A stretch of 64,000 nt of DNA from Vicugna vicugna (Eukaryota), in NCBI GenBank assembly GCA_013265495.1, contig MU057448.1:88181-152180 (forward strand), read 5' to 3'. The translations under genes and the position numbers were made by a program. This document shows, one piece after another, positions 5,450-57,300 of this stretch (position 1 is the stretch's first letter; each line of letters begins with the position of its first letter). Below the pieces are notes generated by a model. It made no database searches. It was given only the letters and a program-made list of their open reading frames with translations, and had not been told where the DNA came from.

Positions 5450-5525
5450 AGAGAGGAGAGAGACCTATGCTGTGGTCTCTCTGCGATGAAAAGCCTCAGG
5501 CAAAGGGGCAGACACAGGTCTCCTC

Positions 5526-5612
5526 TGAGGTCACATGGGTTCAATCCCCAGTACTTCCACTAAAATAATTAATTAACCAAATGTAATTACCTCCCGCTCA
5601 ATATACCAAAAA
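5526..5612 (+). mobile_element. 5'-truncated camelid-type SINE
   Basis: gaggtcacatgggttcaatccccagtacttcc...taattacctccc. Confidence 0.65.
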
Positions 5613-35018: not shown

Positions 35019-36410
35019 GTTACAGGAGAGTCATTTGTGAAACTGTGCCCTGGGCTTTTGGGTAACTTCTTGGTTTAGTTTCAAGGGAGTGCATAATCTT
35101 GTTACCTTATTGAACTGAGGAGACAATTACTGGAATGAGTTTTTCCAGGTCAGTATATCTGAAAGTTTCCACATGGTACCTTGAAAGTCTGTACACAGAG
35201 ATGCCTATGTTAGAAGGATAATGTGTAAAATCTAGCGGATATGTATCTATCATTTCCACTGCCACATATATTTATCTTGATATTGACTTTACAGTTACAG
35301 TTTAGAAACATAATTTTGTCTCATGTGTTTCATAAAAATCTTCAAATACACATAGAGTAAAACTGGTGAAACAGAATGTAGCAAAAGACCATCTTTTGTA
35401 TCATATTTACACTCATGGTGCCCGAAGCTTTGTATCTAGACCTTTCAGGTGGGCTTCCTGAGAAATTATTTTCATTCCATAAACCCCACTGAAGGGTTGT
35501 AGCTTAACTAGCCCATGAATCGGTGGAGTCATAGGAATCCCTGCACATGAAGGGTCTCTGAGCTATGATTACATCCTAGGCCTACGTGAGTGTTACATGT
35601 GTGAATTAACCAACAGATACAGTCATGTGATGACAGAAGTCAAAAGAGAATAGGCAGAAAAAGTCAGAAAGCAGGTTCCCTGGTGACAATCACCTTCTGA
35701 CTCCTCAGAGGTACATGGGAAACATGACCTTCACCTACATAGAAGACGTCCTGGCCACCGGTCTGGGATTGACTGATTCATTGATTTTTAACGTGGGTTT
35801 AGTCTGTATGCTAACAGCTTTTCAGCTTTAACTAGAATCTAAGAGAAAATGGTATGGACAAAGTCTTAAGGAAGGAAACTCAAAATAACCTATGCTTTAA
35901 AAGCTAGGAAATCTTGAAAGTCAAGGTCAAACATGTATTGCAAATCTCTGTCTCTGTCAAAATGACAGCGTAACTATTGTTACAAATCATGTATCATGTA
36001 GCTTTGTTCAGTCCCTCCAATGCTTTTTGAAGCAAGACATGAATGAGTAATACATTAATTATAGTAATTATAAGAATTACATATCTAATAACAAATATTA
36101 GAATAAATGATTTAACAGTTCTCTGATCCCTACAATATAAACCATGGTCCGTTCTCAATTCTCATCATTCAGAAAATGCCTATTTGCTACCATCGAAGTA
36201 TTTTCAGGGCCTCCCTGCACCTGCCTGTGCTCAACACACACTGGGCACAGGCCTGTCTAACCACTCCCTGTGCTGTGCACAGAGGGTCATAGAGATGAAG
36301 GAGCCATGCTCTGCCTGGAGCAGTGAGAACTAGCATTTCACCATGAACACAGTGGCTCCATTACATTTAAGAAACAAACTAACAGAAGTCTTGTCTGGTT
36401 ATCTTCGCAG

Positions 36411-36557
36411 GTACAAATGGAACTTTAAAATCAAACTTGAAATCCCACTGAACAACATGTGGACTGGCAACTGCACAAACAAAGCAGGGGAAGCCATCAA
36501 TGCACTCAAGTCCTTCGTCTTGGGCTGGCCCACGGTGAACTTTGTGGCCACTTTTAA
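36411..36557 (+). CDS. ARHGAP20-like exon, PH domain (YKWNFKIKLEIPLNNMWTGNCTNKAGEAINALKSFVLGWPTVNFVATF)
   Basis: ttcgcag| acceptor, |gtaaga donor, 147 nt, phase 2-2; strong match to the ARHGAP20 PH segment. Confidence 0.92.
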
Positions 36558-37934
36558 GTAAGACCTATAGCTTGGTCCAATGACATGACTTAAAAAGGAA
36601 AACATTTTAACTAGATTCTATACTAAGTCAGTGACCCACTCTCCGACCTCCCATGATGACATCTGTATGCAGTGTAACGCACCCCTCCAAAAGGTTTTCA
36701 TGTTCAGTGGATGGTAAATAGGGGGATTGACTGGAGGACTTTTCTTTAGTTTTGACCCACGGTTTTTCAAGTGGGCCATAGGAGCTCCCGGGGAGCTGAA
36801 GCTCACATGTCCATGGTGTTCCTGTAAGTGGAAGGAGGATCATGAGGTCAAGTCTCCAAGGCCTTCTCTCTCAGCCTGCCCCCGATGCCCAGAGAGCATC
36901 TCTGTTTCTAAATCCCCAGAATATCTTTCTTGAGAAAGTACTATCAAGTAGTCCAATTACATTTGAAAAATTGCCTTTACACTCCCAAGTTAATTCCTTG
37001 AAAGACGGAATTTAATTATAGAAGTAAAATGAATCATCAAATATTAGTTGGTCCTAATTGCTGTGCACAGACTATCTTCTTTGGTGTCTATAGACATGTG
37101 ACCATCTTAAAACAAAGGTAAGATTCCATGGCATGCCGGTCAGCTTACCAAGACACATTCTTGGTTGGACTGAGGATGGGGAACGTGGCCATCCTGAGTC
37201 AGCACGTTTGCATTCACAGGGACATGCAACTTTCACATTTGCCACCTGGAACAACCACAGCCCCAAATCTCATTCTCCTTATGCACACTGAGTGTACATC
37301 ACATGCACTCAACTCTTCCGTATTGTCCTCCTCAACCCATGCTACCAAAATCTCACCTATTGTAAAGATAAGACAACTAAAATGTTACCATGCTGTTAAC
37401 TTATGAAATTCTAGACTGCAGCTGTGGACTTAAAGACAATTCCCAAAGCTTTTTGGGAAGAATCATACGTTTGTATCATTCTCTACATATTTTCTTTCAA
37501 TGAATTACTTCTCTAAAGATTAATAGTTGCTATTGTTTAATATCTTTCCCATGTTGCAGCTGGAAGGAAGCAGTTTCACTTGGGAATATACAAAGGTTTT
37601 GATAAGGGAGTATCCTAGAAACATTTTTTCTAGTGAGGGGGGAAATGCAGAAGTCAAGTTTACACATTATATTGGTTCAAAGGCGGCAAAAACACATATA
37701 AGGCAGTAACAGTGCCTGGCACCCAGTGCCTGGTTATTTGCTGTTTTACTCTTCTGAACACTGGCCTGAGTAATTACAAGCTGTGTCCACAGATGTACGC
37801 AGGGTTGGGAGATCAGTGGGCATTCTACTTTCCTGATGAATTGGATCCTGACATGGTGATGGGGAAGGCAGGAGCAGTGCTACTGGTAGGAAGAAAGAAC
37901 ATGGCAGCCCCTTTAGAACAGCCATGAGAAAAAA

Positions 37935-38250
37935 AAAAAACATACATCCACACAAAAATTTATACAGAAATATTCAGAGCAGCATTATCCATAGTAGCCA
38001 AGCAAAAACAAAAACAGTATAAACAACCTAAGTGTTTACCAACTGAGGAATGGATGAACAAAAGGTGGGGTGGAGGCTGATGATGGGAGTGGTATTGGTA
38101 GTCACTGCTTAATGGACACAAGTGTTTTTTTGCTTTTGGGTGATGAAAACATTCCAGAATGAGATCATAGCGATGGCTGCACAACATTGTTAATGTACTG
38201 AAGATCACAAAGGGGCAATCTGATGCTATGTGTCATTTACAAAAACAAAA
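37935..38250 (+). mobile_element. Old L1 3' fragments
   Basis: catccacacaaaaatttatacagaaatattcagagcagcattatccatagtagcc; tgggtgatgaaaacattc. Confidence 0.7.
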
Positions 38251-38931
38251 GCCTAGTAGGAGGTAAATCCATGTGGGAATGGATGTTAAAGCATTTCAGC
38301 TTTGGAGATTAAATGCTGCAGAGACTGTAGCAGAAACAACATGAATCTTTAATAATTTAGCAATAGACAGACTGGCCTTGATCAGAGGGTTATACTCACG
38401 AAGCACTAATTTAATCAATTACAATTGGCTAGATGCTCTACGCATAAAGGAATACAATATGGTAGGGTTTTTTTTTTCATAAAAAGATCCTCTTGTTTTG
38501 GGGACAAGAGCGTTCCAATCAAATGCCAATTCCTAAGAATGATTTGACTCAAATAGTACAGTTCTTTACCTGTAAATAGCCCCTCCAGCTGACGGAACAC
38601 TCTGTGGTATGATTGACCCTTTTTCAGTGTCAGAACTTGAAGCTTAAAGTGGGTAAGTGACTTGCCCACGGTGACACAGCTTGCATCATACAGAGCTGCA
38701 CTTAGGTGTTTACATTCCAAACCAACTGCTCTTCCACTTTAAGACCTACTTCCCAATGCTGTAACACTGCTTATAACAGAGCAGAGTCCATCACAAGCCC
38801 AGTTATGAGTGTAACACATGCAGCCCCATCAGTAACAGAACACTGATATATTTACCTGCAACAGTGTTTAACATGTTAGTACAAGTGTTTTATGTAGTTT
38901 AATTTCTTTCTCCTAATTTTTAATCTTGCAG

Positions 38932-38973
38932 TTCTTTAGAAAGAAGGGACAGATGGTGCACTTTCCTTGAGAG
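38932..38973 (+). CDS. ARHGAP20-like exon, PH C-terminal helix (SLERRDRWCTFLER)
   Basis: tcttgcag| acceptor, |gtactt donor, 42 nt, phase 2-2; conserved PH tryptophan. Confidence 0.85.
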
Positions 38974-39585
38974 GTACTTTGTCAGTACACGTATTGCACA
39001 TCTTTAATCCATGAGAAAAGAGCACAGATCCCTTCCAGGCAGGGCCCCCCCACTCTCCTTCCTCTCCTTGGTGGGAACTGTTAGATGGCCCTCAAACCCC
39101 TGGAGTTCTGCCCCTGATGCTCTTGTAACTGACACGCTCTCCCTCACATGCACGTTCTGCTTCTTTTTGCTCATTCTGGTTATCACTCTCCTCTTCCCCT
39201 TCTCTCCATCCTAATGCTTGGCGCTAACACGATTCTCAACATATGTACTCAATTCCCAGAAATGAAGCTTACATATTGCCCTGATTTTCAAAGCAACTGC
39301 GCCTTCCCCCCCTTAACCCAGGAAGGTACTGGGGCCCTCCGATCTAGACAGCAAAAGCTCTAAGGACTGGACCTGCTACCCAAATCTTACATGACAAGGC
39401 TACCTGCTCTTTTCTAGGTCATATCTTATTTTCCTGAAATATTTCTGCATCTTTTCTCCCAGCCCCTGATTGGATTCTGCTTAATCTATCCACATGCTTT
39501 TCAAAGTAACAAAGTATACTTAAAGGATTACCAACATACATTGACTTGAAACAAGCTAAGAGCTAATTCACTGACTCTGCTTTAG

Positions 39586-39667
39586 ATACATCGATCTGGC
39601 CAAGGAGGAGCAGCTGAAAAACATGCCCCTCAGGATCTTTTCCAAGGGCATCAAGAACTGTGCCTGT
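39586..39667 (+). CDS. ARHGAP20-like exon (YIDLAKEEQLKNMPLRIFSKGIKNCAC)
   Basis: ctttag| acceptor, |gtaagt donor, 82 nt, phase 2-0. Confidence 0.88.
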
Positions 39668-40722
39668 GTAAGTGTTTTCAGGACCAGTAACTTAAATTCC
39701 AGGTTCCTGACTTAGTAAAATGAAAGCGATAGAGAGACATAGAAAGAGAGCACGGGGGGATGGAAGGGAGAAGGGAAGAGAGGGGAGGGGGAGAAAGAGT
39801 GTTTAGAAAGCACTATGTGGGAACACGGATTTCCCTGGGAAAGTGTGTCCCTGCACATATAAAAGGTGAGCCCTAGGCAAGATGAAGTAAGGAGAACCCA
39901 CCACAGCGACAGCGCTTGAGCATGGAAAGAACAGTGTCTGTAAAGTGTCCGTACTATGTCTCTGGGTCCTTCTAACAGCAACTACACTGGCTGGCAATAC
40001 AGTGATTTTCACAAGCAGCTATTTCCTATTGGTGTTAAACATTGTCTTCTAACTCTACCACCACTTACATAATTGTAGGTTGGGTTGTGTGCAGTTTTTA
40101 TTTTTGCTGTGATGTAATATTTGGAATAATTGAAAACTTGCAGAAAAGTCACAAAAATGAAAACTGAGATCACCCAAGTGCCCTTTACCTAGACTCAACT
40201 ATTTAGTAAAGTTTTGCCTGATTTCTTGCTGTCCCCGCTATTACTCTCTGTACGTGTATATGTCTAAGTATTTCTGAGGATCATATACACACCATGGCCC
40301 GATATCCTTAAACACTAAGGATATTCTCTCATATACTCACCAGACAGCTATGACTTTCAGCAAATTTAACACTGACCATGTCCTGACTGTGTCATTAACT
40401 GAACCAGGTGTGATGTGCTGCGGACCAGCCCATGTGCCCTCTGGGGATTCTCAGCCTTTCTTTCGAGCTTAACCTGTTATATTTTGTGCACCACAAATCC
40501 TTTCAAAGAAACACTTGTTTTACTGAAATGCTGTTTACTACCTTCATGTTATAGAAACAAATGAAAGTCAGTTGTAATTAGGGGGCTGGGCTCTACATGT
40601 GCTGCACTGTGTCCCTGCCTGAATGCAAGCTTGGACTGTAGAATATGGATCATAATTTTACAGTATTTACTCACCTGTTTTAATTTTTTTTAATTTAGAG
40701 CAATGTTTCTCATTTTTTAAAG

Positions 40723-40800
40723 TCTATAACAATAAGAATACTGAATACACACACAGTGAATGATATCATCAACCTGTCACTGTCAAAACTAGGAATCACT
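40723..40800 (+). CDS. ARHGAP20-like exon, RA domain (SITIRILNTHTVNDIINLSLSKLGIT)
   Basis: ttttaaag| acceptor, |gtaagt donor, 78 nt, phase 0-0. Confidence 0.88.
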
Positions 40801-40854
40801 GTAAGTTACCTACAAGTTCTTTTTAGTTAGAAACCAACTTTTATTTCTGAGAGG

Positions 40855-40900
40855 GGTGTGTGTGTGTGTGTGTGCGCGCGCGCGCACACGCGTGTGTGTA
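40855..40900. repeat. (TG)n(CG)n alternating purine-pyrimidine tract
   Basis: Directly visible. Confidence 0.9.
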
Positions 40901-42460
40901 TGGTGTTTTTCCCATCATGAGACTGCAGACTATTACTAACAGGCAAGTCATATTCTTTCCCCCTGAATTTATAGAGGTTGAAAGCAGCAGAGGTATATTA
41001 CCAGCCTGTACAACAGTGTTAGTCTTGTATCCCTGTTAAAATTCTGTGCCAGTTTAAAGGGATAACATAACGAATGCGGGCGATAACTTTAGAGAACTAG
41101 TAACACCCTCTTTATTGTGTACATTACATACCAGACAGTAAAATATGTATGAGTCCAGATATTCCCTACTCTACTGGACTGCTCTTTCTATATCTCCGTC
41201 CGTATACCCCCACTCCAATCCCCATTTATCCTGTCACCTGAGGACTCAATCTTGCTATGGTAAATCCTACAGGAGGTGTTTTGCTGTAAAGATTGACATA
41301 AAGATTGCTGGCTTGAAGCTACATCCCCTTGAGGCAAGTCCTGAGGAGGAGGCGGCTAAGACCTCTTGTCAGTTCGTGAAGGGGACAAGTTGTGAATAAG
41401 ACCAGGGATCTGGGGACATGTGTGTACACAGCGCTTTCACCTTGTCTTGCCTTCCAGTCTCTGCTCCTGTATGTTTTGCTAGGGCTGCTGTGACTTGTTG
41501 TAAAATTGTTTTGGTGGAAGACATGGCTGTACTACAGGATGAAGTTGTGCAAGGGAAAAAAGGCGGGGGGTACTGACATTCAGATGGACAGAACTGAAGT
41601 AAACATATCTGCTTGTATACACTTCTCTGTAAATGGGAAAATATCCTGCTACTGTGACATGATGAGCACAGGACCTGCGACCAACACTGTTTCACATACG
41701 TTTTGCTGTATCTTCCCCTGGAGAACTCTACAATAATGCAGCAGCCCTTATGATTTAAACTTGTTTCAAATGGGATTTCCAGAATTTCTAGGCAGTGATT
41801 CTGCTGGGAGAGAGTGTTCTCTGTGTCTCACCTGTGCTCTAGGTCAGAGTCCTTGTCCCCCATCCCCCTGGCACGGGGCTGGGTGGCACCAAGGCCCCAG
41901 GGCTGCCTTCTCTCTCCCATCCCCAGGCCTTTTGGGCACTTCCCTCCTTTTGCTCCCAGCTGCTGAGCCGATGATGCCTTTCCAGTGTGTCTTGTTCAAA
42001 GACAGTCTTGGCAGAGAACATGGCTCTGGATGATATGCTTGTCTGGGCAGAGACGTTTAAAGGAAAAGCCAACATTCTCTAAGGAGCCTAGAGACAGTAA
42101 AAAGGAGGACTTTCGAGATTGGACTTTCCATCCACAGAGAAGGGGCACTGCTGTGATTTTTTTTATGCCACGGATCACCCACAAAGGACAGGGTTGTGTG
42201 CACTGTGGTTTCCTAGATCCTCAGCCTTTATCAAAAGGGACAAAAATCTCACTTGGCCTGTTGGAGGCTGCAAGAAGGACCAGGAGTTATTACTGGTATC
42301 AGGACTGTTAACTCAAAACCTGTTCCACTCCCCTGGATGAGATACCATTTCTACGGGCCCAAATTCTTTCTTTTTGGAAATATATAAGCGCTGAAGGAAA
42401 GTGCTCAAGTACCTACTGGGAAAGATCTGCAGTGACGCATAGTTCTTTTCTGTCTCCAAG

Positions 42461-42527
42461 GGCTCTGAGAAAGACTACCAGCTGTGGGTGACTGCTGGCA
42501 AGAAAAAGGCCTCATACCCACTCACTG
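42461..42527 (+). CDS. ARHGAP20-like exon, RA domain (GSEKDYQLWVTAGKKKASYPLT), copy 1
   Basis: tctccaag| acceptor, |gtaagt donor, 67 nt, phase 0-1. Confidence 0.9.
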
Positions 42528-43061
42528 GTAAGTGTCAGGGACACCTAAGGTGGGCTGATTGCAGAAAAAACTGTAACCCTAAACTCTCAAAGTGACAGTT
42601 AATCAGTCTAAAGCTAAAATACCCTCAACAATGAAACTCTCATGCGATACTCATTCTACATTTACTTGACAACCCCAGGCACTTGCTCTACCAGCATGGA
42701 TATTAACATCTCTCCATTCTCCAGCTTATAGTCTAGTTGGAGAGAGAAAGTGAATTTTTCTTCACTATTTTCCTTGACAAACAGAGCTATCTTGGAAAAC
42801 TTTATTAACTTACCTACTCATTTCCTTCCTTCATTACATAGGCAAGGAAACAACACAAATGTTGGAGGCTGCAAGAAGGACCAGGAGTTATTACTGATAT
42901 CAGAACTGTTAACTCAAAACCTGTTCCAACCCCCCTGGATGAAATACCATTTCTATGGGCCCAAATTCTTTCTTTTTGGAAATATAGAAATGCTAAAGAA
43001 ATGTGTTCAAGTACCTACTGTGAAAGATCTGCAGTGACACACAGTTCTTTCTGTCCCCAAG

Positions 43062-43128
43062 GGCTCTGAGAAAGACTACCAGCTGTGGGTCAGTGCTGGC
43101 AAGAAAAAGGCCTCATACCCACTCACTG
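43062..43128 (+). pseudogene. Duplicated RA-domain exon, copy 2 (GSEKDYQLWVSAGKKKASYPLT), with weakened donor
   Basis: Near-identical to 42461-42527; donor is gtgtca instead of gtaagt (4-nt deletion relative to copy 1). Confidence 0.88.
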
Positions 43129-45426
43129 GTGTCAGGGGAACCTAAGGTGGGCAAATCGCATAAAAAACTGTAACCCTAAGGTCTCAAAGTGACAGTCAGT
43201 CTGAAGCTTAAATACCCTCAACAATGAAACTCTCACGCAATCCTCATTCACACATTTGTTCAACAAACCCAGGCACTTACTCTACTGGCATGGATAACAA
43301 CATCTCTTCATTCTCCAGCTTACAGTCTAGTTGGGGAGAGAAAGATAATTTTTCTTCACTACTTTTTTCCTTGACAAACAGAGGTATCTTGGAAAACTTC
43401 ATTAACTTACTAACTCATTTACTTCATTACATAGGCATGAAAATATGACAAATTGGAATATCCTTTCCTCACACACTACTTTCCATATTCCAGTCTTCAA
43501 GTTCTCTGTTCCATTTCCTAATCACTAAGTAGCTTCTATTTCATGAGAATCTTCTAAGATCCAGCCATGCCTCTGAATCTAATATTTAACATCTGCTCCA
43601 TGCCCAAAATTTTTCTCAGCATCAGAAAAAAAAGTGACATAGTCACACTCAGACTCTTCAAGTCTTCGTGGCCTGAAGCACCTGCACTTTGCTGTTTCTT
43701 CAGCTGACTTCACCAGCATTGCTCTTGAGCTTTTCTATAAATACATCACACTTCCCCTACAACAGTTACTAGAGCAAACGAGCTAAAATAATGATACCCA
43801 TCCTTGGATCAGGAAATCTGTACAGTGTGGTCCGTGAAAATAGAGGGGTTAAAACAAGGGGAAGGACAGGATCTGCAGCAGACTGTGCAACACAGTACTG
43901 GGAACAATGACTCCTGCTAGAAATCCTAGAGCACTCCGTCTTACAAGCAGTTTCTTTCTTTTTTTTTTTAATCCATTTAAAAATCCTATGGGGCAATTAC
44001 TCTTTTCCTAGTGATTTCAAGTGCATTTTCAAATGATCTGGAAAATCCAGACAACCAAGTTTTTCCTAAGAAATATATATTCCCAGTCTTAGAATATATG
44101 GGGTCACCAAGTGCATAGCTGAGGACTAAAGTCCCCTCAACTATTCATGATTCTTTTTAATGTTGACATCTTTGTAAATGTTAGTCAGCAATAACCTGAA
44201 AAAAAAAACTGAATACTTAGGTATATTTAAATAAGAGGCATTAATTACATAGAATCACGTAGATGACACCTTGCAGCCTGAGGGTGGCTTCACCCAGCAC
44301 GGCTGCGCTAAGAATCTCTAAGCACCTGTCATTCATGATGACACCTGAGGAGTCGCTCCGCAGGCAGTTTTTACATGTGCTGAATTCTCAGTCCTGGTCA
44401 GTTGGTTGTATTTTATTGATGTCATCAAAGCTTCCTTTGTATTAACAGTTGCAAGTCACTATGATTTCTGTTCTGAACAGAGCACCAAACTTGCATCTGC
44501 ACCACATGAAAAGCAAAGGCAAGAGCTCCCCAAGTTACACTCAATAATAAATCTGAAGTCAAAGACAAGGAACATTCATTCTATTCTTTAAAATGAAATC
44601 CACATCAGTGCACAGGGGCCTTGAGGATTCTATGGAGCCTAAGAAACTAAACCACAAACGAGCAAAACAAATCACTTGGCAGCACCCAGTGATTTCCTGG
44701 GAAGTTCTCCATTCTGTAAACACTGATTTGCACTTTGCTTTTGAGTTTCTAGCACCATGCAGACTCATATCTAATCCTTCCCTGGCAGATCCCCTTGAGG
44801 GGAAGGCAGCAGTGGGAGGGAAACTCGTAGACAAACCTCACTGCTGCTGTTGAGCAGCTCTTCCTACTGGGCTGACAAAAGGAAAAATCTGTTGAGTTGA
44901 CACACATGAGACATTAGAGAACACAGCAAGTCCTACCACACACAGTCCCATTTTGTAAAGAACATTAAGCACCAGTGGTTATTAATGCATCACTTTGGCC
45001 CTTATGAGTCTAAGAGGGGTAAGCAGTTAAAAGGAGGGATATAAGGCCAGTAACTTGCCTAACACGTACAGACCTAGTGCGTCTGTCAAGGCAGAAACTA
45101 GGAGGCCAGCAGCACCCTCAGAGGGACACACAGGGGAAGTCAACGTTGCATGACACACTGACACAGCTACACATTCCAAGCCAAGTGCCGTGTCTGGGAA
45201 GAGTTTTCTCTTTACATCTCAAACTCTTCTGTTTGGGCACCTTGCTTTTGCAGGGGGTCCTCAGGTCAGCCCACTTCGTGCTCGTTCAGGAGGCACAGAC
45301 CTCTTAGCCCAGAACCCCTAGAAGAACAGCAGCCACATCAATGTGGGGCCCTCACTCACAGTAAGGTGGGTCTGACCACACCCATCACCAGCAGCCTGAA
45401 TCTATATTGACTTTATCTCCACATAG

Positions 45427-45615
45427 GCCATGATCATCCACACGACATTAAAATCAGCCCTCTTCCAGCTACTGCGCTCCTACCACAGGGACCGGAGGAC
45501 TCCACCACTCCTTCTGCCCTCCTGGAGGCCATCCTCTTGGAGAAGAGGTCCCCAGAGATCCAAGGCCAGTTCGTCCTGAAGCCCAGGCACCCAGCCAGGA
45601 GCCAGCAGGGCAGAG
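45427..45615 (+). CDS. ARHGAP20-like exon, RA domain C-terminal part (HDHPHDIKISPLP...EIQGQFVLKPRHPARSQQGR)
   Basis: ccacatag| acceptor, |gtgagc donor, 189 nt, phase 1-1, open. Confidence 0.88.
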
Positions 45616-46671
45616 GTGAGCCCCTTCCCTTCCTCGAGTGTCTTCTCTTGGCTCACGTCTCTGCTCCTGAAACCAGACCCATGCACAGAGCAGCTTCTCC
45701 ATGTGGGGGTGCAGGGACAGCACAGGAGGGCACCCAGTACCCACCCAAGCTCAAGCTCAGAGAAACCCTAAAGCTCTGAAATCAAGGCCCAATTCGTGTC
45801 TAGGAAGGTTCAGGTTTTGTGTTTGTTTTCATTCCTCCAGGCCTACTGCCCTTCTCTGTGTCCCAGGAGCTCTTCCTACATGAAACTGTGTGTGTTCACT
45901 ACTGTGTGTCTTAATAAAACATGAGCTTCTTCCAGCCCGGGAACACGTCATCCTTGTCCCAGTGTTTGGTCCAGCATCTCAGACCCTCACAGGAGGTGGT
46001 CAGATGACTGTAGGACTTAAGACACAGCTGCCATGGAAGAACTCCAGTGGCACAGAGTTATGGAGTTGAATTGGATTCTATTCTGGCCTTATGCTGAAGT
46101 GGCCTTGAGGATTCTAGGGTCAGGCAGCTTGTGTCATGAAAAGGCAGATCCTTTGGGTGGGAGGAGGCTGACCGTCATTGGCTACTCAGAAAGCCAAAGA
46201 GAAAATCTCAGAGTGGAAGGAAACTTATTATGAAAGTAAGTTATTACCAAACTCTGCTTGTTAGGGAATACCTAATCTTTTTAGCTTTTACAGTGACATC
46301 TGACACTAGAATCCACTGACAATACTTGTCAGGAACCTTGTATAACTACAGCTTCAGTGCCCCCCATGCCGCAGGGCAGAGGCAGCAGAGAGCGCTGTCT
46401 GGGAAGTGCTGTCAGTGGGAGAGTCACCCCTGAGCCTGATCAAGCCTCTCGGCTTCACTAGCAGTTTGCAGGGCCTGGGGAAGGAGGACACATTGACACC
46501 ACAAGAATCCAAGTAGCCAATGTCAGCCTGCTGGAAATCCTATACAATAAGGGGTTCAGTTTCTCTCTCTTCTGGCCATGACAAGAAACGTGCTGTAAAG
46601 TGCACACTGCGAATAAGGCTAAATGAATTACACTATGACTACTACTAACCCCTCCCCTCCATCACACTCAG

Positions 46672-46841
46672 GCCGCAGGGCAGCCAGCAGAAGCCCGGTC
46701 AGGTCCTGGGCCCTTTGGTGGCACCCCCACCCTTGGCAGGAGAGCCAGCACCCACCTCTGCCATCGGCAAAGCCAGGACAGCTCTTTGAAGCTCCTCTGG
46801 GGGACGTGTGCGGGGACGACAAGCTGCCTGCCCCAGTTCTG
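46672..46841 (+). CDS. ARHGAP20-like exon, start of RhoGAP domain (...SWALWW...KPGQLFEAPLGDVCGDDKLPAPVL)
   Basis: acactcag| acceptor, |gtgggt donor, 170 nt, phase 1-0. Confidence 0.85.
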
Positions 46842-48176
46842 GTGGGTCTCCTTTTGATCTTCTGTAGCCCTCCTGACAAGGGCAGCGCTCACAGGTCACG
46901 TGTTCTCATCCACACCCATCCCCAGGTGGGGAAGTCTTTAGACAGCCCCTGCCTTTGGCTGAGAAGTTTTGTTCATATTACTTCAGAGAATAAATCTGAT
47001 TTCAATACTGCAGGGTCAGAAAGCACATACAGCAGGAAAAACTACTCTTGTCCATTCCACTGGTTTCAGCAAAGACCCACACCCACCTGCTCAGACCCAT
47101 TACAATGGGCTCTGCAGGCATGAAATGCTGAGAGTCCCCCTCACCCTCACCATCCCTCTTCATCTCCTTCCTTGAACTGCACACTAGTCTCAAGTCTCCT
47201 CCATCTGAGTGTACTCAGTCTAACAACTCAGCTCTCACATAGATTTGATCTGTAACCCAAGGGTTTAAGTAAAAAAAGACTCACTCTTTGGCACATATGA
47301 ATTGTCTGATCCTGACAGAATGTGTCAAATGATAGTCAGAGTTTGGTTTGTGTTCTGTACAATTCATATACTGAAATGTCAGGGTTGACGTTTATTCACC
47401 ATCCACTATTTCTCCGAGCACTATATTAGGTGTCAGAAATTTTATGCTAGACATGAAGAAATGTATCATATGAGTTACATGTTACCCCCTACACCAGCCC
47501 TTGCACCTTGCACAGCAATTTTACAGAATAGCTGTGATGATCATCATCCCCAAGAAGGAAGAGTAAAAAGGCCTCAGTAAAGTATGTGCTGTGCCCAAGG
47601 TCAGATAAACAGCATAACAGATTCCAGATTCCTCGGATTTCCTGACTCCAGCACCTGTCGCCTGTCTGTGCTGCAGGCCACATAGCAAAAGGACAGGAAA
47701 GACTGATGAGCAGGGGATGCACCCAGAGGGGAGGAGAGGGGTTTCAGCCCAATTTAAAAGAGGCGAGGAATACAGGAAGCAGAATTGCGGTACATGGTCA
47801 CACACAGAAAATGAATGAGGCAAAGATGTCCATACTTGGGGAAGAGCATCTGCATCAGGGAAGAATGACAGGACCCAGAAGGAGAGGGTGACTGTACAAA
47901 GGCCTCAATGCAGAGAAGTGTGACTTCACAGTGTACATTCATTGAAAAGGAAAATCTGATTCAACAAGTGTTTAAAATGTTACAGCGTATGAATGTTAAA
48001 AGGACTGCTGAGTAGAAAATACATGCAGAGACACAGAAAAAAATTCTAAATTGGCTTTAGTCCTTCCAGCTCCAGCACTGGGACCTCATACACCCCCAGT
48101 CTCTCCAACAGAGGAGAAGCATGTGCTCTGGGCTGGGAGATATGAAATGCCATATATTTTCTTTTCCTCCCTTTAG

Positions 48177-48338
48177 GAGATGCTTTCCATTATCAATCAA
48201 AAAGGGCCACTCACAAACTGCATCTTCCACAAAAATGCCAGTAAAACCTCATGCAGAGCCCTCAAGGAGAGGCTGAACGCTGGGGACACAGTGAACGTGG
48301 AGAATGAGTCCATCCTGGTGCCGGCATCTGTCTTAAAG
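48177..48338 (+). CDS. ARHGAP20-like RhoGAP exon (EMLSIINQKGPLTNCIFHKNASKTSCRALKERLNAG...ESILVPASVLK)
   Basis: Strong pyrimidine tract with ctttag|, |gtagga donor, 162 nt, phase 0-0. Confidence 0.92.
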
Positions 48339-50267
48339 GTAGGAAAACGTCTAGCATTATCCGCGCACAGAGTGACTCTGAGACTCTATGGGGGTCCCTC
48401 ATTGTGACTGCCCGAGAGCAACAGGTGTCATAGATGAAGGATCTGAGAAACTGGAAAACGCTGCACACAAAGTTTAAGGAAGTTACTCTGGGTGTTAGAA
48501 GTCCCATGTTAGGTATACTTTCCTTTTTCATCACAACCCTCTCCCCGTCTTCACTCCTGAACAATCCATGCAAATACAAAAATAAATAACAAATGAAAAA
48601 GCACACACCTGTACAGAATGTACCAAAACAAGCTTTCTGCCTTTGAGGGCTTCCTTACCGCCTTTCTAATGAAGCCAAACTTTCCCCAAAAAATTCCCAT
48701 TAAACTTTAGGAAATACTTACACAAGTTTATCAAGTTAGTAAACATCTACCTTACAATGAATCAAAACACGCTCAGTAAGGCCATCGAAATCTGTGGTGA
48801 CTTCATCATCCTCCCTTCCCCCATCTCCTAATGCATTTACTTTAAAGCTAGTGCAGGGAGGATGGCACCGTGTGTGCCTCCTCTCACCTCCTTTACTGCC
48901 TTTGGCTTCCCTTGTTCATGTCTGTTATGTGTAACCCACCACCCGTGGTTAGAATTCCACGGTAACCGGCTCCTACCACAAGCCTCATTTCAGAAATCTG
49001 TCCGTTAAAGTGAGTGCAGCAGTCAAAATTAGTTTCAAACTCTGAAAATGCAATGGGTTTATAGAAGAAATACATTGATTTTGAAATTATACAGCTAAGT
49101 CAGGTATCCAGCTGCATTTCCACAAAGGGAATCACAGAACAGAAAATGAATTTAATCATTCCATCTTGGTATTTGTTAGCAGCTCTAAACAAAAGTATAT
49201 TAACGTAGTCATGACTACAAACAGGTTATGACAGTTATCTTAGAAACTCCATTACATGTGGTCTTTCCTTGCCCCTATTAATGCTGGACCTTAACTTGAT
49301 TTGTGGGATAAATAGCAACAGTTCAGAACTGACTTAGAGCTGACCCTGACCACACTCGCACCATCATACTACACACTAGGTGTGCAAAGAGCAAGACGAG
49401 TGTTGCCGTAAGTGCACATGGAATTAATCTGCTCATCTAGTAACAGTCAGGCTCTTGTCTATTTCCCATTATAAGCACAGACCAGCAAGAGGCTGGCTAC
49501 TCATGGGTACATGTCTCAGACACTCTTAAAATTCTTGCTTCCTAAAGTTGACTGTTCTTAATGGGAAATCAGACTTTGCAAACTTGGCCTTGATAATACC
49601 ATGTGTCAAATAACCAGAGAGTTGGTCTAAACCAGAAGGGAAGATTTATCACCACCACACTGAGTTTGCCATTAAACTGTCTGTAGACAGAGGTCCCACA
49701 GCAACACCCTTGGCATATCCTGCTTGAGTCATGCTCAGGCTTCACTGCATGCAGCCTCACCCACAGGCTCCACAGCACAGGGCCCAGGAAGGAGACATGT
49801 GCTCCCAGTGCAGGGAGTTGGTACACACAAGACACAGGCCCTGCTGTCCCCTCCCAGACTCCTGGAACCAGACACAGCCAAAGCGCTTCCTCCCTCCAAA
49901 TACACTGGGGTCACTCAAGAGGGAACACAGAGAAGAATCCTAATGACAAGAGAGGGTGCTGCATACCAAGAACACAGTACAGGGATGAGAGGGCAGAGAC
50001 CCTGTCCCCTGCCGTCACTGCTCCGTCGGCAGTGCTCAGGAGAGAGAGGCCGGCACACACAGCAGCTCAGTAAGGACTGGAGCATGTGAACACTGACCAC
50101 ATTATAAGCATCATAGTTTCCTAGAGGCATTTTCTGAACAAGCTCCTATTAAGAGAAGCCTTGGGCTGTGGAGTGAGACCAGTGGAAGCCCGGTGTGCCT
50201 TTGAAACTAACAAGGTGATGCAAAACTTCCCCTAGTCTGGCACAAAACATGACAACTTCAGGGCTGC

Positions 50268-50392
50268 GGAGGGTACAGCTCAGCAGTAGAGTGAATGCTG
50301 AGCAAGCACGAGGTCCTGGGTTCACTCCCCAGAATCTCCAGCAATAAATACATAAATAAATGCAACTACCACCTTGCTCACCAGGGGGAAAA
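50268..50392 (+). mobile_element. tRNA-derived camelid-type SINE (Vic-1-like)
   Basis: ggagggtacagctcagcagtagag (A box) ... gaggtcctgggttcactcccc (B box), then (taaa)n-type tail. Confidence 0.8.
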
Positions 50393-51279
50393 AGTTACTA
50401 CTTCATAAATTTTAATAGGCCCATTTCTGTGATATGAAGGCTTGTACACCAGAAATTAGACAGAAATTGGCCTACTGTCTCTGACTATACTTTAATTAAA
50501 AAAAGAAAATTTATTCATTTTTTCAGGTTCTCACTTAGGAAGCTTACATTTGTGTACCTCTAGTCCTGACACTCAGAGGACTGAAGGTCCAATATATCTA
50601 AATTATAAGTGTCCTACTTGGGAGGGTATGTTCCATTCAAGGAGCTGCAAGGGGTAACATGCACGTACCCACAGGGGATTTTGATATGTTTTTAGCACTT
50701 GCTGCTTAAAAGGCTGCAAACTGAACTTTTATACAGTATCAAAAAGAAGACTGAAGCTATTATGAGTAGTTTTCCCCATGAAACATGCACACCTCACGTC
50801 AGCCCAGGTCTCTTGTAATATGTGTGCAAGAGTGTGAAGGGTGTGTGTTTAGTGTCAGAGCCTCTCTTTCTGAATTAAGAGCAAGCGCTGTCTGAAGCAA
50901 ACAAGTAACATGAGCATGTGTGTTGCTTCTCAAGACACTCACAGGACGTGGGATGGGTGGTCACCAGACCCTATCAGCTGGGACCAGTGCTGACACAGAC
51001 ACAGAGAGCGAGGCCCAGCAGGTGGCGGGGGATTCCTCATCACTCTCACTGCCGTCCAGACTCCACTGTGATGCTTCTAATTTTAGATGGCGAGAGTCCC
51101 AGCCCCACCTCCTGGGTGTGCGAGTCTGTAGAGTCAGAGCCCAGCTCTGCCACGGTCACACATTGGTCGTTGTGAAGGAAGTGAGGCCTGAACGGAATTT
51201 TCCAACTTAATGTTTTCTGTTATTTCTCCAGTATGTATTTATCGTAATAATATAATCTCTTTTTTTTAATCTACGGAAG

Positions 51280-51389
51280 GATTTCCTTCAGAACATTGAA
51301 GGCGGTATTTTCACAGCCAGTCTCCATGACAAATGGCTCAGTGTCCTTGATGACAGGAATGTGGAGGAAAAAATTACTGCAACCTGGAG
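51280..51389 (+). CDS. ARHGAP20-like RhoGAP exon (DFLQNIEGGIFTASLHDKWLSVLDDRNVEEKITATWR)
   Basis: T-tract...ggaag| acceptor, |gtaatg donor, 110 nt, phase 0-2. Confidence 0.9.
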
Positions 51390-51904
51390 GTAATGACAGT
51401 CACATCCCCAAAACACAACCAATATCCTCTTAGGAAAACATCAACTCATAGTTCACAGCTCTGTCTACTGAAGTAATGACCAGTGTCAGAGGGCTGCATC
51501 TGTTACCCACAGGAGCCACTTGAAAATCAGATGCAGGCACTCCTGCTGTTACTCAATTCTTGTTTTTATCCTAATCTTATTAACATGGACTCCAGACCAG
51601 TTGACACTTGCTGAAGACACTGAATTGTTGCAGATGAAATCCACTGGTCAAAACAGAGATGGTAGAGAACCAATCTGCCAGTGTTATGATCTTAACTATT
51701 CAAACACTTAATCAACCACAGAAGTTAGTATCTCACCCAGAAACTGAAATCAATGAACATTTCTGTATGCATTCATGCTTAGAACTCTGAGAGAGAGGAC
51801 TGTGTGCATGGTTTACAAAGACGTACTCTGTTCTCTGTCTCTGTATTTCCACTTCCTAAGCAAAATGACATGCTTTGTTTAAAAGTGCATTTTTCTGTCT
51901 GTAG

Positions 51905-52091
51905 GTATTTAGATCAGCTGCCAAGAGCCAATGTTGACCTACTGAAACACCTTTCTTGAGTGCTCCACAACATTGAGCAACACTCCTCATTCAATCAGAT
52001 GACAGCTTACAATTTATCAGTGTATAGCCCCAAGACTTCTTGGTCCATCTCAAGCCACCAGCTCAGAATTAGAAAAGGACTTCACAAAAAA
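51905..52091 (+). pseudogene. ARHGAP20-like RhoGAP exon with premature stop and internal frameshift
   Basis: Reads YLDQLPRANVDLLKHLS*VLHNIEQHSSFNQMTAYNLSV; the homologous tail (IAPRLLGPSQATSSELEKDFTK) lies in a shifted frame after ~52023. Confidence 0.9.
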
Positions 52092-53268
52092 GTAATGAGA
52101 TCTCTCATTTTTATGCCTTGTGGGGCACGGTTCCCACTTTGAACCTGAAATCTGTGGTACTAACTGTGATGGACCAGTTTTTTAAAGTGCACATTTTAAA
52201 TATGCTCCCCTGGAGGGGCAGAGTCATTGATCTGGGGGTTATGGGAAGGTGGGTTGTTAAGTGGGAAACAGAGCAGTTGAGTCATTTCTCCTTTCCCATC
52301 CAGGAGACTGAACCACAGAGAGATAAGAACAGGATAACGGCACAGAACTGAACCTGAGCTTTGGGGTCTGACAGCCGAGGTTCAATTCTCAGCCTAATCA
52401 CTGAGGGAGTGTGAACTAAGGTGAAGGTCTCATGATTTCATCATCTCATAATGACAACAACACCCAGCTCCTCTGGTCACTGTTGGCACATCTTGGCGGC
52501 TTGGGCAACATGAGCACCCACGGCTCCACACACACTGGCCTTCCTCTGCCAGCTGTAGTCCTCAGAAGGATACTCAGCTTCTACGTCACCCCCACTGCAG
52601 GGGGAAGAGGCTAGTAAAAGATTCCAGAACATCGGAACAGAGCCACAACAGGCCTAGTAAGATCACAGGTCTTCCCCGAGCTCAACCCAACAGCCAGCAT
52701 AAGATGAGGCAACGCAGTTAGACAGACCTGTTTTCTCTCCAGCTGCTTCCTTCCTTCACAAGAAAAATCACAGAAATCTCTGCTTCTGAAGTTTCAGATA
52801 TTTCTTCATTTAAGAGGTGAATTTCTCAAGTTTTTATCTATTGGGTACTTTATTAATTACCATAAGATGTTATATGTCAATTTAATAAAACTGGAAAAAA
52901 TGAAATAGTAACAAATAAATGAAATTTAGTAAGAGAATACACAGATTCACCCCAAGTAACCTTCATGGGTCACTTGAAAATTACCCTAGTTTTAAAGATG
53001 TAACCATTGTTACAAACATGTTAGCTTTTAAACGAGGCCACAAATATAATTTTAGCCTACTGATTAAAAGAATTTTAAAATCTGTACCCAAAGTACTCTT
53101 GAAAGTATCACTTATTAGAGAAAACTGATTTGTATACTCATTTTTCAATCAACTTCGAATTTTTCTCAGAATTCTCTTACATTTTTTAGATTCAAGAGTT
53201 AGATATGAAATGATTTATAACTATGCCATATGGAAAAGAACACCCTGTTTTGCCCTTATGTGTTTCAG

Positions 53269-53412
53269 ATTTCTTTTGTGCAATTTTTTCTGGAAAACGG
53301 CCTCCAGTTCTGGGGAGAAGACATTCCTTCCCTCTGGGGAGAGCGCGCGGCCACTCCTGATGAAGGTGACGTCACTAGTGACAGGGAGGGGGCTGCAGGG
53401 TGTGTGAATCAT
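53269..53412 (+). CDS. ARHGAP20-like exon, end of RhoGAP domain (ISFVQFFLENGLQFWGEDIPSLWGE...)
   Basis: gtttcag| acceptor; matches the IQFLIENC..IFGEEITSLF segment; donor uncertain (gt at 53400 or gtaagt at 53413). Confidence 0.82.
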
Positions 53413-53869
53413 GTAAGTAGCTTTGGTGAGAAAGACAGCAAGGCAGCCGGGGCTCATGGGAGACGCTTAGACAGTGCAGTTCTGGAGCCCAAATCACATC
53501 CCAAGAGCAACGATTTCCACCTGCTCCAGGTCAGGGCCGCTTTCACACCATCGTGAGACCAAAGAAAGGGTAAGGCAGCTCTGACTGCAGGAAGTTGCTA
53601 GTATAGCATTAGGAGACATCAGGGTATAACACAGTGTTTGGAAGTTTTTTCAAACAAAACTTTAAATGGGACTCATATATATCAGATGTGCTCAGGCTGA
53701 AAATAGAGTGAGGGGCCCAGAGCACTGCCTTGTTTATTCCTCACCCCCTTTTTTCCTGCTTAGTGGTACCTGAGGTACCACAGGCTTCCAGGGCCTTTGA
53801 AACAGGTTGAAAAGAACCAGCATCAGTGAGAAAAAAAGGACTTGATTTGATGTCAAACCACCTTTCCAG

Positions 53870-54005
53870 ACTGTCAACTCCTGGGCTACTATTCACAGCT
53901 GTGTTAACTTTGGCCAATTATTTTAGCTCAGTTTCAGTTCCTTCATCTCTAAAATGTGAATAAAAACATCTAAGTTTTGAGATTATTGTCAAGATTAATA
54001 ATGGA
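53870..54005 (+). mobile_element. MIR SINE fragment
   Basis: agctgtgttaactttggcc...cagttccttcatctctaaaatg. Confidence 0.55.
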
Positions 54006-54179
54006 AGTAAAGTAAATATGTACAAAACCAATTACTAAGGCCAGTAGAAGTTCCTCTGAGAACTCTGAGCTAGGATTGTCTGAGCCTAGGTAATCACAGT
54101 TAATTGGCAGCAGTCCATTTGATAAGGCAGAGTTTAGATTCAGAACCTAGGAACATGTATCATGAGATTCTTTGTATTT

Positions 54180-54340
54180 GGTGGGGTAGGCAATTAGGTT
54201 TATTTATTTTTATTTTATGTACCTATTCATTCATTCATCCATTAATTCATTTATTTATTTTAATGGAGGTACTGGGGACTGAACCCAGGACCTCATGTGT
54301 AGTAAGCACACACTGAACCACTGAACTATAACCCTCTCCC
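54180..54340 (-). mobile_element. tRNA-derived camelid-type SINE (Vic-1-like)
   Basis: Reverse complement gives gggagagggtatagttcagtgg...gaggtcctgggttcagtccccagtacctcc...aaacctaattgcc. Confidence 0.82.
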
Positions 54341-57300
54341 AATCCCTTTGCATTCTTGACATTTCTTGGTTTTATGACATTTATCTCACTGTTTTGACGA
54401 AATCCTTAGGAAAATCTATTTAATCAGGAATTTAGTTGAATCTAGTACCTGAGAATGTGCTTTACTACTAAGATAACTTTGTTTTTCAATTCATCAGTGA
54501 CAACAGAACAACCACTGGAATCCATGTGAATGACAGTAACAGTCATTTTCAAAAATGCACAAGGACAGTATTAGGCCAAGGCCCCATCTACCACGGGTAT
54601 ATGCAGATGCCTGTCCACAATTTTTGAAGCTCCTAAAGATTAGAAATGGCCATAATCACATCTGACTCTACTCTATCTTCTATTCCTCATCTATTGTTTT
54701 ACATTTGTTCCTACTGTATTCTGCATTTTCATACTGATTCAATAAAAATGGGTTAGATAACCACTTTATTTGCTTATGGCTCATATTACCACCTTGGAGG
54801 AGGCTCATCTGGGCAGTCTGTGTCTCAGCTAAGGTCACTTCTGCACCTGCAGTCAGCGGGCAGCTCAGCTGGGGCTGACTCACGTGTGTGTTGCTTGGTG
54901 CTGGCAACCAAGCAGATCCCTATCTCTTCAGCAAGCTAGCCTGGCTTTCTTCATATGGCGGAGGAAGAGTTCCCACCAGCAAGATGCTTTTCAAGAGTCC
55001 ATGTAGGGGAGGGCTGCACGAAGGACCACAAAGACAGTGAGTCATCCTCCATCACTTACTGAGGGCTGTGACTGTCATCAACCACACATGATACTCAAAA
55101 CTCAAGACAGCATTCCTATCACACACCTACTTTCATTCATGAGTTGTTAACCCTCCATTCTTTACACCAGCATTTTCCACAGGGCATTAAGAAGTTTGGA
55201 AGGGAGTGTCTTTGAAATAACCATTGATTTTCCCCCCAGGTATTTCTTACCTCTGTCTTGCTCTCTGTCGTAAGCTGTCTTAAGAGACAGATCATTTCCT
55301 CAGAGAACAGAAGTTACAGAAGAATATGAGGAATAACAGCTGTTTGTTGCCTGTGAGTTTTAAAAATTCAGTTTCCTAGGAAACAAAAACAATTCATGGC
55401 ATGAAGATTTAGGTGGCAATCTCATAGGAAAATCCCAAAACAGTGAGGTATATAGGACATGTGCACCATTTCCTGAATAGAAACCAAGAGGAATCAGGAA
55501 GCCCTCACAGAACAGCTAAATCACATCTCTAAGACAGAGCCTTGTAGAGGCATATAGAACTTCTTGCACCGCAACATGGAACAGATTAGTGAAATGATTC
55601 CATCAATCTGAGACTGTTAGGGAAGGGATAAAGTCACTGGATGTGATGACACACGTCTCAGCAACAGCTGTGCAGGCCGGCTCCCCAGGGCCAGACGGCA
55701 ACTAGGACAGCTCGGCAGGTGCCCAGTGTACACAGATGACACAGAGGGCCAGGTAGGTGTCATTCCACATTCCACTACCTCCTAACTCCTTGGCTGTAGA
55801 AGACTCCAAAACACAGACACACTCATGGATAAAATGGAGAGATCTTGCATTGCTACCAATTTGGGAACAAAGAATTAAGCTGTAAGTCAAATGAATTATT
55901 TAAAATTATAGACCAGTATCCATCTTACATCTATCAGTTCGTAGACAGACTGGCACAAGTATATGGAATACGTGATCCCCACATTGTTTTCCTAGACAGT
56001 GTTCCGTGGCCAAATAGGTTTGGGAAATGCTGTCTTTTCCTTTTGGAAATCAAAATGTCCATTAACATATTAATGTCTTAGAGAAGACCCACAGGAAAGA
56101 CACCCAGTATTTCCCTAGGTATTTGACCTGGGAGAGCCTTCTGGAGAAACTCTTGCTGAATGATCCTGGGCAGACACATTAGTAAGCAATGCTCTCAATT
56201 TATCTTCTTAAGTCATAATTTTACTCTTTCACTCACTTACTCAAAAACCTTCAATAAATTTCAATGGATCTTTAGATTTTTTTTCAGAAAAAATTCTTTT
56301 TTAAGAGTCTCCACAATGCAACCTGCTCTAGTAATCAGTTTTCACTATTTTCCTGAGTAGATCCTTTCCTTCATCTAGGTCAAGCTCTTCACTTTCCTTA
56401 ACGAGGTGCACTCATGTTTCTAAGTATAAATCTTAACTCCCCATGGTCTCTACAGACCCACAAACTAGGTGGCCATTTTGGTTCTACTCTCCCAGAAATG
56501 TCACAGAGCTGCCCCTGACCGTTCCAGGTCAAACTAGCTGTTCTCTGATAATGCATGAACATGTCACCCTGTTACAAGTTGGCGTCTATGGTGCTTTGTC
56601 CTGGCAGGAATGATGCCAGTATGTTTACACATCATTCAACAAATCCAAATTCCTGTGGTAAATGACTGTATTTTGCATTACTTTTATATTACTTTCAGTG
56701 GCTGGCTAAATGTCTACCCCTAAAATGCGTAAATACGTGCACTTTTCTGAGTGTAGAAACTTTACACACATTGGAAATGACTGCAAATTTTAAAACTAAT
56801 GAGGTAGAACACAGCACAAATGGAATTTCAGTGGGTGGCAATAAGACATCAGTTTGACTAAATAAGTTTGTTAGAGAGCACGTCACAGTGTTCACTATTC
56901 ACAAGTCCTGGGACGTACTCTTTCCATTCATCATGTAAAAAATGAGGTATTGGTGTGATGTATTTGGGAAGAATTGCATGCATCTGTGACATTTCTTTTA
57001 CAAAGCAACAATTCCATAATTAAAGGGGAAAAAACCATGGCTGGACAATGTACCTGTCAGTTGTTGAGCCAAGAAAGACATGCATAAGTCCCTGAAATCT
57101 GAAAAGGAGACAGAAATCACAGTAGATAAAGAGAAGCTGAAATTCAACTAATTTGTCCCATGCAATTCCTGCAGGATTGCCATGGGAAAATAGTTAATAA
57201 ATGTTCATTTCACCTTCAGCATACTCAAGCACCATACATCCTTGAAAAAGTCAATTTATCAATTTTTTGGAAAGACCCTAGGAACTGATAAACTGTAATA

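Follow-up and report, generated by a model that had tools for sequence, protein, structure and literature searches.

A 5'-truncated, mosaic ARHGAP20-like locus in the vicuña genome, very probably an unprocessed pseudogene of a family amplified in camelids

The 64,000-nucleotide (nt) stretch of Vicugna vicugna DNA analyzed here, referred to as the window (C182:88181-152180), contains a gene-like structure related to ARHGAP20 in which nine consecutive exons read open and the tenth carries a stop codon inside the RhoGAP domain. This arrangement raises the question of whether the locus is a functional paralogue that died only recently, a gene that still yields a truncated protein, or simply a duplicate in decay; a preliminary description made from the letters of the window had put forward the first two. 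The analyses reported here indicated that the locus is very probably an unprocessed pseudogene, truncated at its 5' end and mosaic in composition, that belongs to an ARHGAP20-like (PH-RA-RhoGAP) family amplified in camelids, and that the window copy, which retains its introns, most likely yields no functional protein. In itself the locus is a commonplace decaying duplicate, and it is the surrounding ARHGAP20-like family that is worth noting. The genome searched for related copies was the window's own assembly (2.03 Gb in 12405 contigs).

Exons were placed by tblastn searches with cattle ARHGAP20 (P0048) and with the ARHGAP20-like proteins of pig (P0091), reindeer (P0002), snow leopard (P0045) and bat (P0016). 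These searches revealed a colinear exon series on the plus strand between 36.4 and 54.6 kb, whose homology to the ARHGAP20 family is far above chance and whose borders, set by eye and script, are listed as E1 to E12 in Table 1. As the preliminary description had stated, the nine exons at 36411-51389 are open and have canonical, phase-matched splice sites: E1-E9 carry AG acceptors, GT donors and fitting phases throughout, and add up to 1047 nt, or 348 codons, free of stops. E1 matched the Pfam profile of the ARHGAP20-type PH domain (RHG20_PH, PF22286) over profile positions 36-82 of 93 (E 9.8e-12), and the domain is incomplete in that positions 1-35 are absent. E3-E5 aligned to residues 142-219 of P0045 and 78-155 of P0091, in which the RA domain (PF00788) is matched at residues 157-233 and 93-168, respectively; the window exons are too short for Pfam, so the RA assignment is by alignment only. 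Homology to the RhoGAP domain (PF00620) was found in E8 (27.3 bits) and E10 (37 bits) against a cut-off of 24.5, in a domain interrupted by the TGA at 51957 and by the frame shift of a 2-bp deletion.

The break within the GAP domain that had been described was seen as a TGA at 51957-51959 in E10. Because the tblastn alignments, the splice-site and phase check, and the matches to Pfam and to the solved structure 3MSX_B agree, the exons, splice sites and TGA reported earlier can be taken as real. All introns are retained and colinear with those of the paralogues over 26 kb, which is not what a processed pseudogene (retrocopy) would look like, and blastn homology to the other copies ends on the right at about 57.5-57.98 kb. 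The earlier identification of an intron-containing relative of ARHGAP20 was also borne out by a phylogenetic tree, described below, that puts the window nearer to ARHGAP20 than to TAGAP.

The beginning of the gene is missing. In blastn comparisons with six fetched copies and with C907, the left edge of homology fell at 31422-31431 in seven of seven cases, and the breakpoint at 31422 corresponds in those copies to a point some 540-730 bp 3' of the PH-N exon, the first exon of the PH domain. The PH-N exon gave nine matches in the genome and none on C182, and coding exon 1 of the alpaca ARHGAP20-like protein P0102 was present on C907, C2069, C1898, C9998, C2248, C6144 and C7620 and absent from C182. 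Searches of the window for the PH-N exon, by tblastn with the translations of five copies and by blastn with flanks of 700-800 nt, matched only downstream of 31422, and the region from 20 to 31.4 kb of the window matched dispersed repeats only. Because homology begins at 31422 and both 5' exons are absent from C182, the start codon and positions 1-35 of RHG20_PH are missing, and the only start available in place of the original first coding exons is an internal ATG at 36343. Residues 1-71 of the alpaca model P0103 aligned to 36343-36555 at 84.5% identity, and P0103, which belongs to a paralogue, has the same start.

Two other explanations for the missing 5' end were considered and rejected. 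The 5' exons do not lie further upstream, as genome-wide searches found neither on contig C182. C907 is not the detached 5' half of the locus either; it continues past the breakpoint and, being 91% like C2069, is another copy.

The view that clear lesions are confined to the tenth exon could not be upheld, as the 5' loss is accompanied by loss of the catalytic arginine finger, a duplicated exon 5 and stops in the last exon. At the arginine finger the window reads CIFHKN, against GIFRQS (as in 3MSX_B) or GIFRKS; the arginine is replaced by H in the window, K in C9998 and C1898 and L in C2069, and kept in C7620A, C7620B and C11790. The finger is thus missing in four of four copies of the window's subfamily, and the residue expected of an active RhoGAP enzyme is not there. 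A 600-bp tandem duplication (42259-42860 and 42860-43453, 73-96% identical depending on the block) doubles the 67-nt exon 5, which is present as one unit in other copies, and splicing in both units would shift the frame. The two units resemble different paralogues, which fits repeated exchange among copies. Tandem Repeats Finder, run on the window at score 80, returned no rows.

Besides the TGA, E10 has lost 2 bp near 52020 and 1 bp at the donor, and the net loss of 3 bp restores the frame at the exon end, into E11. In E12, a TGA at 54527 and a TAG at 54572 precede the stop used by the family at 54641, so that together with the lesions of E10 no open frame runs from a start to the family stop. 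The intron upstream of E1 additionally holds a GC-rich dispersed repeat that is found in the window copy only (Table 1); a first look at this repeat gave 3315 candidates genome-wide, and the copies that were scored were 87-95% identical over most of the query, mostly 89-92%.

Comparison with the copy on C9998 revealed that the window is a mosaic. Identity to C9998 was 84-89% at 36-51 kb and 94-97% at 52-56.7 kb; taken from about 51.7 kb onwards it was 94-98%, versus 85-87% upstream, and in 150-bp bins the switch fell at approximately 51.6-51.9 kb, within intron 9. Upstream of the switch the nearest copies were C1898 and C2069 at about 88%, with nothing closer in the genome. C9998 is itself damaged at the codon of the window's TGA and has both E12 stops, and it bears further damage in the form of a 1-bp deletion in E1, the absence of E2-E3 and a TAA in E5. 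The simplest reading of these patterns is that the 3' end of the window copy would have been received from an already dead C9998-type copy by gene conversion or by unequal crossing-over or chimeric duplication. That the TGA was inherited jointly with C9998 is not claimed, the same G>T with a 1-bp loss being as parsimonious as a deletion of the G.

These comparisons also bear on the earlier suggestion that the TGA might be an assembly error and the gene intact. The family does sit in duplicated, poorly assembled DNA with many short contigs, and errors of assembly or sequencing could in principle have produced both the TGA and the indels. However, an independent copy, C9998, shows damage at the same codon and has the E12 stops in common, three separate lesions fall in the single exon E10, and the window contains no N. 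Even if the TGA were an error, the gene would still be broken, since the other lesions remain, among them the lost arginine finger and the two 5' coding exons that are absent from the entire contig. An intact gene at this locus is, for these reasons, extremely improbable.

Table 1. Positions of the features of the ARHGAP20-like locus in the window, with the evidence for each
Feature	Positions	Strand	Evidence and remarks
Duplicated ARHGAP20-like segment	31422..57976	+	blastn against six other copies; left edge is the 5' truncation point
Dispersed repeat insertion, ~1.8 kb, intron upstream of E1	32505..34298	unstranded	other copies jump from ~32505 to ~34298
Upstream piece of open reading frame, in-frame ATG 36343, 23 codons into E1	36343..36410	+	open reading frame 36334-36561
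E1, C-terminal part of ARHGAP20-type PH domain	36411..36557	+	AG/GT; Pfam RHG20_PH
E2	38932..38973	+	AG/GT, phase; weak tblastn match to P0045 residues 129-143; aligned with five paralogues
E3, RA domain start	39586..39667	+	tblastn, splice sites; RA domain of P0045
E4, RA domain	40723..40800	+	tblastn, splice sites
E5, RA domain	42461..42527	+	tblastn, splice sites; identical to E5 of C1898
E5b, E5 duplicate	43062..43128	+	inside the tandem duplication; donor weakened to GTGTCA
E6, linker	45427..45615	+	tblastn, splice sites
E7, linker and GAP domain start	46672..46841	+	tblastn, splice sites; RNA joint to E8
E8, GAP domain, CIFH in place of GIFR	48177..48338	+	PDB 3MSX_B (E 8.4e-12); Pfam RhoGAP
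E9, GAP domain, final open exon	51280..51389	+	tblastn, splice sites
E10, GAP domain, TGA and two deletions	51905..52091	+	PDB 3MSX_B (E 1.3e-15)
E11	53269..53365	+	donor 53365/53366 from RNA joint and alpaca P0102; alternative GT donor at 53413
E12, coding part, two premature stops	54498..54643	+	family's usual stop at 54641-54643
Tract resembling C9998	51700..56665	+	left edge ~51.6-51.9 kb; right edge is the end of the compared DNA
Antisense transcript	CpG island 58200-58900, 55251-55375, 55013 downwards	-	RNA joints; overlaps the 3' end of the pseudogene

The window copy is not a single divergent paralogue, as had been assumed, but one of at least 13 ARHGAP20-like loci in the same genome. 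The 360 bases around E10 gave 11 matches at 83-100% identity, and the snow-leopard protein P0045 gave 75 exon matches across about 20 contigs. Seven copies were aligned, with C3706, C9156, C9305, C7991, C6144, C6007 and C11484 known from search matches alone, and each of the seven in the alignment bears one lesion or more. The translation of E1-E9 was 79% identical to the alpaca ARHGAP20-like protein P0102 (621 amino acids), 59% identical to those of pig and snow leopard, and 52-53% identical to ARHGAP20 of Bos and Pongo. Some of the other copies have nearly verbatim counterparts among alpaca protein models: P0101 shared 188 of 240 12-mers with C1898, and P0104 shared 189 of 235 with C7620A. 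No protein model more than 90% identical to E6 of the window was found in a collection of 5.8 billion sequences.

The relationships of these copies were explored in a maximum-likelihood tree, built rapidly under LG+G4 from a GAP-region alignment of 48 rows and 155 columns, with branch support by the Shimodaira-Hasegawa-like approximate likelihood-ratio test (SH-aLRT) only and with C5599, whose sequence we take to be that of TAGAP, as outgroup. The ARHGAP20-like proteins formed one clade, bats and colugo excepted (SH-aLRT 99), inside which the seven camelid copies grouped together (94) and the window joined C1898 and C2069 (97). C4211 fell among the artiodactyl ARHGAP20 sequences (93) and is likely the ARHGAP20 proper of this genome. 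Branch lengths of 0.01-0.03 in ARHGAP20 orthologues versus 0.1-0.3 in the ARHGAP20-like clade indicated that the GAP domain of the latter evolves about ten times faster. The presence of sloth, elephant, manatee, tree shrew, carnivores and artiodactyls in the clade suggests an age equal to that of the placentals. Strong divergence from ARHGAP20 is therefore a trait of an old, fast-evolving clade that was later multiplied in camelids; the heavy divergence described earlier is real, in that identity to ARHGAP20 is little above half, and belongs to the old family rather than to the window copy.

ARHGAP20-like sequences have been amplified in camelids and, separately, in ruminants, where models with 4-6 GAP units are found. 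The models P0001-P0004 (sheep, reindeer, grey seal and goat; 1091-1698 amino acids) contain 3-6 repeats of a GAP-domain motif, which represent tandem arrays of ARHGAP20-like units or, alternatively, the fusion of several genes into a single model. Other irregularities were encountered among the copies. Exon 10 of C2069 is tandemly duplicated at a spacing of 356 bp with both units open (C2069:21887-22437). On C9998, at approximately 504235-517713, about 13.5 kb of 57-bp units (19 amino acids, like HSENTPSSEGTNHTVLMHA) have expanded within the PH-N coding exon, and many of these units are open in frame. In the Camelus ferus models P0100 and P0105, a kinase-domain fragment (PF07714/PF00069), presumably resembling the EGFR/ERBB family, is fused to ARHGAP20-like exons of the C1898 type, which suggests a kinase pseudogene fragment lying upstream of a C1898-type copy.

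The alpaca protein P0102, whose loci in this genome are C907 and C2069, is a full-length PH-RA-RhoGAP model with leucine at the finger position (KRIFLKNA). The arginine-less subfamily to which the window belongs may represent a catalytically dead 'pseudoGAP' lineage, to judge from the residues at the finger, and with this full-length open frame in alpaca the subfamily as such may be alive.

Whether the window copy itself has been under selection was addressed with its private substitutions, that is, substitutions at sites where all other informative copies agree. These numbered 36 at 1047 exon sites (3.4%) versus 417 at 14561 intron sites (2.9%), and the introns additionally held five window-private indels. 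By parsimony, 13 synonymous and 27 non-synonymous changes fell on the window branch; simulation of 40 random substitutions on the coding sequence gave 11 synonymous changes, 27.5 non-synonymous changes and 1.4 stops, with a probability of 0.23 that no stop arises, and a count of at least 13 synonymous changes had a binomial P of 0.32-0.39. The window branch thus looks neutral, the exon rate being about that of the introns and the split between synonymous and non-synonymous changes being as simulated. The openness of the nine exons is only mildly unusual and hardly a sign of selection. When about 1.0 expected hits on 36 splice-site bases and about 0.36 expected indels were added, a rough estimate of the probability of finding no lesion in E1-E9 was about 0.06.

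RNA data were also considered. Six RNA runs held 6-9% of the sampled words of 45400-52100, a stretch of which exons make up 12%. Four runs from three studies were placed on 36000-55999; all of this material consists of Logan contigs, which are 95-99% alike to the window, reveal their strand from splice sites alone and give no expression level. The letters at which the contigs differ from the window are in part ancestral and in part private, with C9998 sharing 26 of 40, and because of these differences the RNA derives from a sister locus, another species, or another individual or allele. At 95-99% likeness, the contigs were rejected as proof that the window copy is expressed.

The clearest joints in these contigs are antisense to the gene. 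Four of four runs skipped 55014-55250 at a joint reading CT..AC on the plus strand, which is GT..AG on the minus strand, and in four of four runs approximately 55375-55377 continued at approximately 58382, in a CpG island, again with CT..AC on the plus strand; the depths of the antisense joints were 43-197. Cover over 52.4-54.2 kb was dense and, for the sense gene, largely intronic (introns 10-11). As evidence for sense transcription of a nearly identical locus these data are weak; as evidence for an antisense transcript that overlaps the 3' end of the pseudogene they are better. They could be thought to favor a locus that works as RNA, in which a transcribed pseudogene, paired with an antisense RNA arising in the CpG island (58.2-58.9 kb), modulates ARHGAP20-like paralogues, the minus-strand joints recurring in all runs and the dense cover being what such a role would draw on. 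However, the contigs differ from the window by 3-4% and carry neither an expression level nor any strand information other than their splice sites, and antisense transcription from a neighboring CpG island is common and in most cases without known function. We consider an RNA function of this kind highly improbable.

Several observations weigh against a simple pseudogene and need to be set beside the evidence for one. Nine exons and 18 splice sites with zero lesions lie on the lucky side of expectation, at the probability of about 0.06 estimated above for the strictly window-specific branch (3%), and a branch about double that length since divergence from C1898 would bring the value below 0.01. 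Sister copies carry one to three or more lesions in E1-E9 and the window none. The pairwise ratios of non-synonymous to synonymous rates (dN/dS) for pairs that include the window were 0.46-0.57, below the neutral value of about 0.74 derived from the simulation. Loss of the arginine finger alone is no proof of death, because P0102 is full-length in an arginine-less subfamily. The in-frame ATG 36343 is the start used by alpaca P0103 on a paralogue. Finally, two sense joints were present in the RNA contigs: E7 to E8 (46840->48176, GT..AG) in two runs of one study, with a short side of 27, and E11 to E12 (53363->54496) in one run at a depth of 8.2, with a short side of 28, the latter agreeing with the P0102 junction ...TPDE|VTT.... 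Because the odds of finding no lesion are low and dN/dS is below the neutral value, some recent constraint may have acted on exons 1-9 or on a parent copy since lost. Exons 1-9 of the window copy may also have died fairly recently. In the proposal of a long-lived, fast-evolving paralogue that died recently, great age and fast evolution belong to the family; the window's own branch looks neutral.

Some of the same observations are those that a truncated protein would call upon. Such a product, read from ATG 36343 to the TGA, would have about 388 amino acids, with part of the PH domain followed by the RA domain, the linker and two thirds of a GAP domain that is catalytically dead, and could serve, for instance, as a Ras/Rap-binding decoy in reproductive tissue. 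The open E1-E9 with intact splice sites, the shared start codon, a dN/dS somewhat under the neutral expectation and the weak sense joints, which come from reproductive-system libraries, would all be compatible with it. Nevertheless, the PH domain would lack profile positions 1-35 and the GAP domain would be cut at about position 115 of 148, so neither should fold. A sense transcript would have no normal start, and with 134 nt between its terminating TGA and the following exon junction it would be an expected substrate of nonsense-mediated decay under the general 50-55 nt rule; if both E5 units were spliced in, the frame would shift. In addition, the exon rate on the window branch is not below the intron rate, the split between synonymous and non-synonymous changes is neutral, and the RNA contigs come from another individual, species or copy, with joint sides of just 27-28 letters. 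With the start codon and PH profile positions 1-35 of 93 missing, the earlier suggestion of a truncated PH-RA protein that is still expressed is quite unlikely. A more elaborate version, in which arginine-less pseudoGAPs are kept in reproductive tissue and the window is a recently disabled or still translated member read from ATG 36343, with its RA domain as a Ras/Rap decoy under antisense control from the CpG island at 58.4 kb, is very unlikely.

An unprocessed, truncated and mosaic pseudogene would account for the locus by a history of five steps. The ARHGAP20-like paralogue clade multiplied in the camelid line via segmental duplication, as the tree and the copy count show. One duplicate would then have reached this contig lacking the promoter as well as coding exon 1 and the PH-N exon; its breakpoint is visible in the alignments, and the mechanism is our proposal. 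The arginine finger had by then already been lost in the subfamily, as it is absent from four of four copies. The 3' part from intron 9 onwards would next have been replaced by, or come to be shared with, that of a dead C9998-type copy, a tract that brings C9998-type damage at the exon-10 codon and the two last-exon stops; the switch in identity is plain, and the direction of transfer is presumed. The locus's own 2-bp and 1-bp deletions, transposon insertion and exon 5 duplication, all of which are seen in the window, followed.

The locus can be placed among known systems accordingly. ARHGAP20-like proteins such as P0102 and those of pig and snow leopard belong to the same clade and have the exon-intron layout and PH-RA-RhoGAP order of the window; unlike them, the window is without two 5' coding exons, has lesions in E10 and the last exon, and has a doubled exon 5. 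ARHGAP20 (RA-RhoGAP), whose human GAP domain is PDB 3MSX, has homologous PH, RA and RhoGAP exons, and 3MSX_B was the best solved match; it keeps GIFRQS, where the window has CIFHKN, and is about 1190 amino acids long with a long C-terminal tail, in place of which P0045 (579 amino acids) and P0102 have a short one. TAGAP has a related RhoGAP domain with a GIFRK motif but is far more distant, with the longest branch in the tree and no PH or RA exon matches in the 10 kb compared. A known general class is that of unprocessed, duplicated pseudogenes from segmentally duplicated families on which gene conversion has acted, and the window copy resembles these in its kept introns, partial duplication, mosaic identity, shared lesions and neutral-looking drift.

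What merits attention is a family that is apparently of placental age and fast-evolving, that was amplified separately in camelids and ruminants, and that includes an arginine-less subfamily with a full-length open frame in alpaca. Literature searches under ARHGAP20, some of them loosely set, returned no paper describing an ARHGAP20-like family. Mouse Arhgap20 itself is reported to be preferentially expressed in newborn ovary in a FIGLA-dependent manner (PMC1906760), so that a function of the family in the germline is a sensible lead.

Two other regions of the window were noted in passing. At 19180-19785 on the minus strand, in a GC-rich patch at 18-20 kb, an open frame of 201 amino acids aligns to residues 51-250 of human IGLON5 (PDB 29CP/6DLD, E ~2e-95); it spans three Ig domains without introns and has lost conserved Ig cysteines (YTCSF>YTRSF, YECVT>YEWVS), and is probably an IGLON5 retrocopy pseudogene. 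The region at approximately 3200-5600 has a GC content of 60% and long open frames on both strands, and two similar peptide stretches about 900 bp apart occur in the open reading frames at 4262-5050 and 5170-5568.

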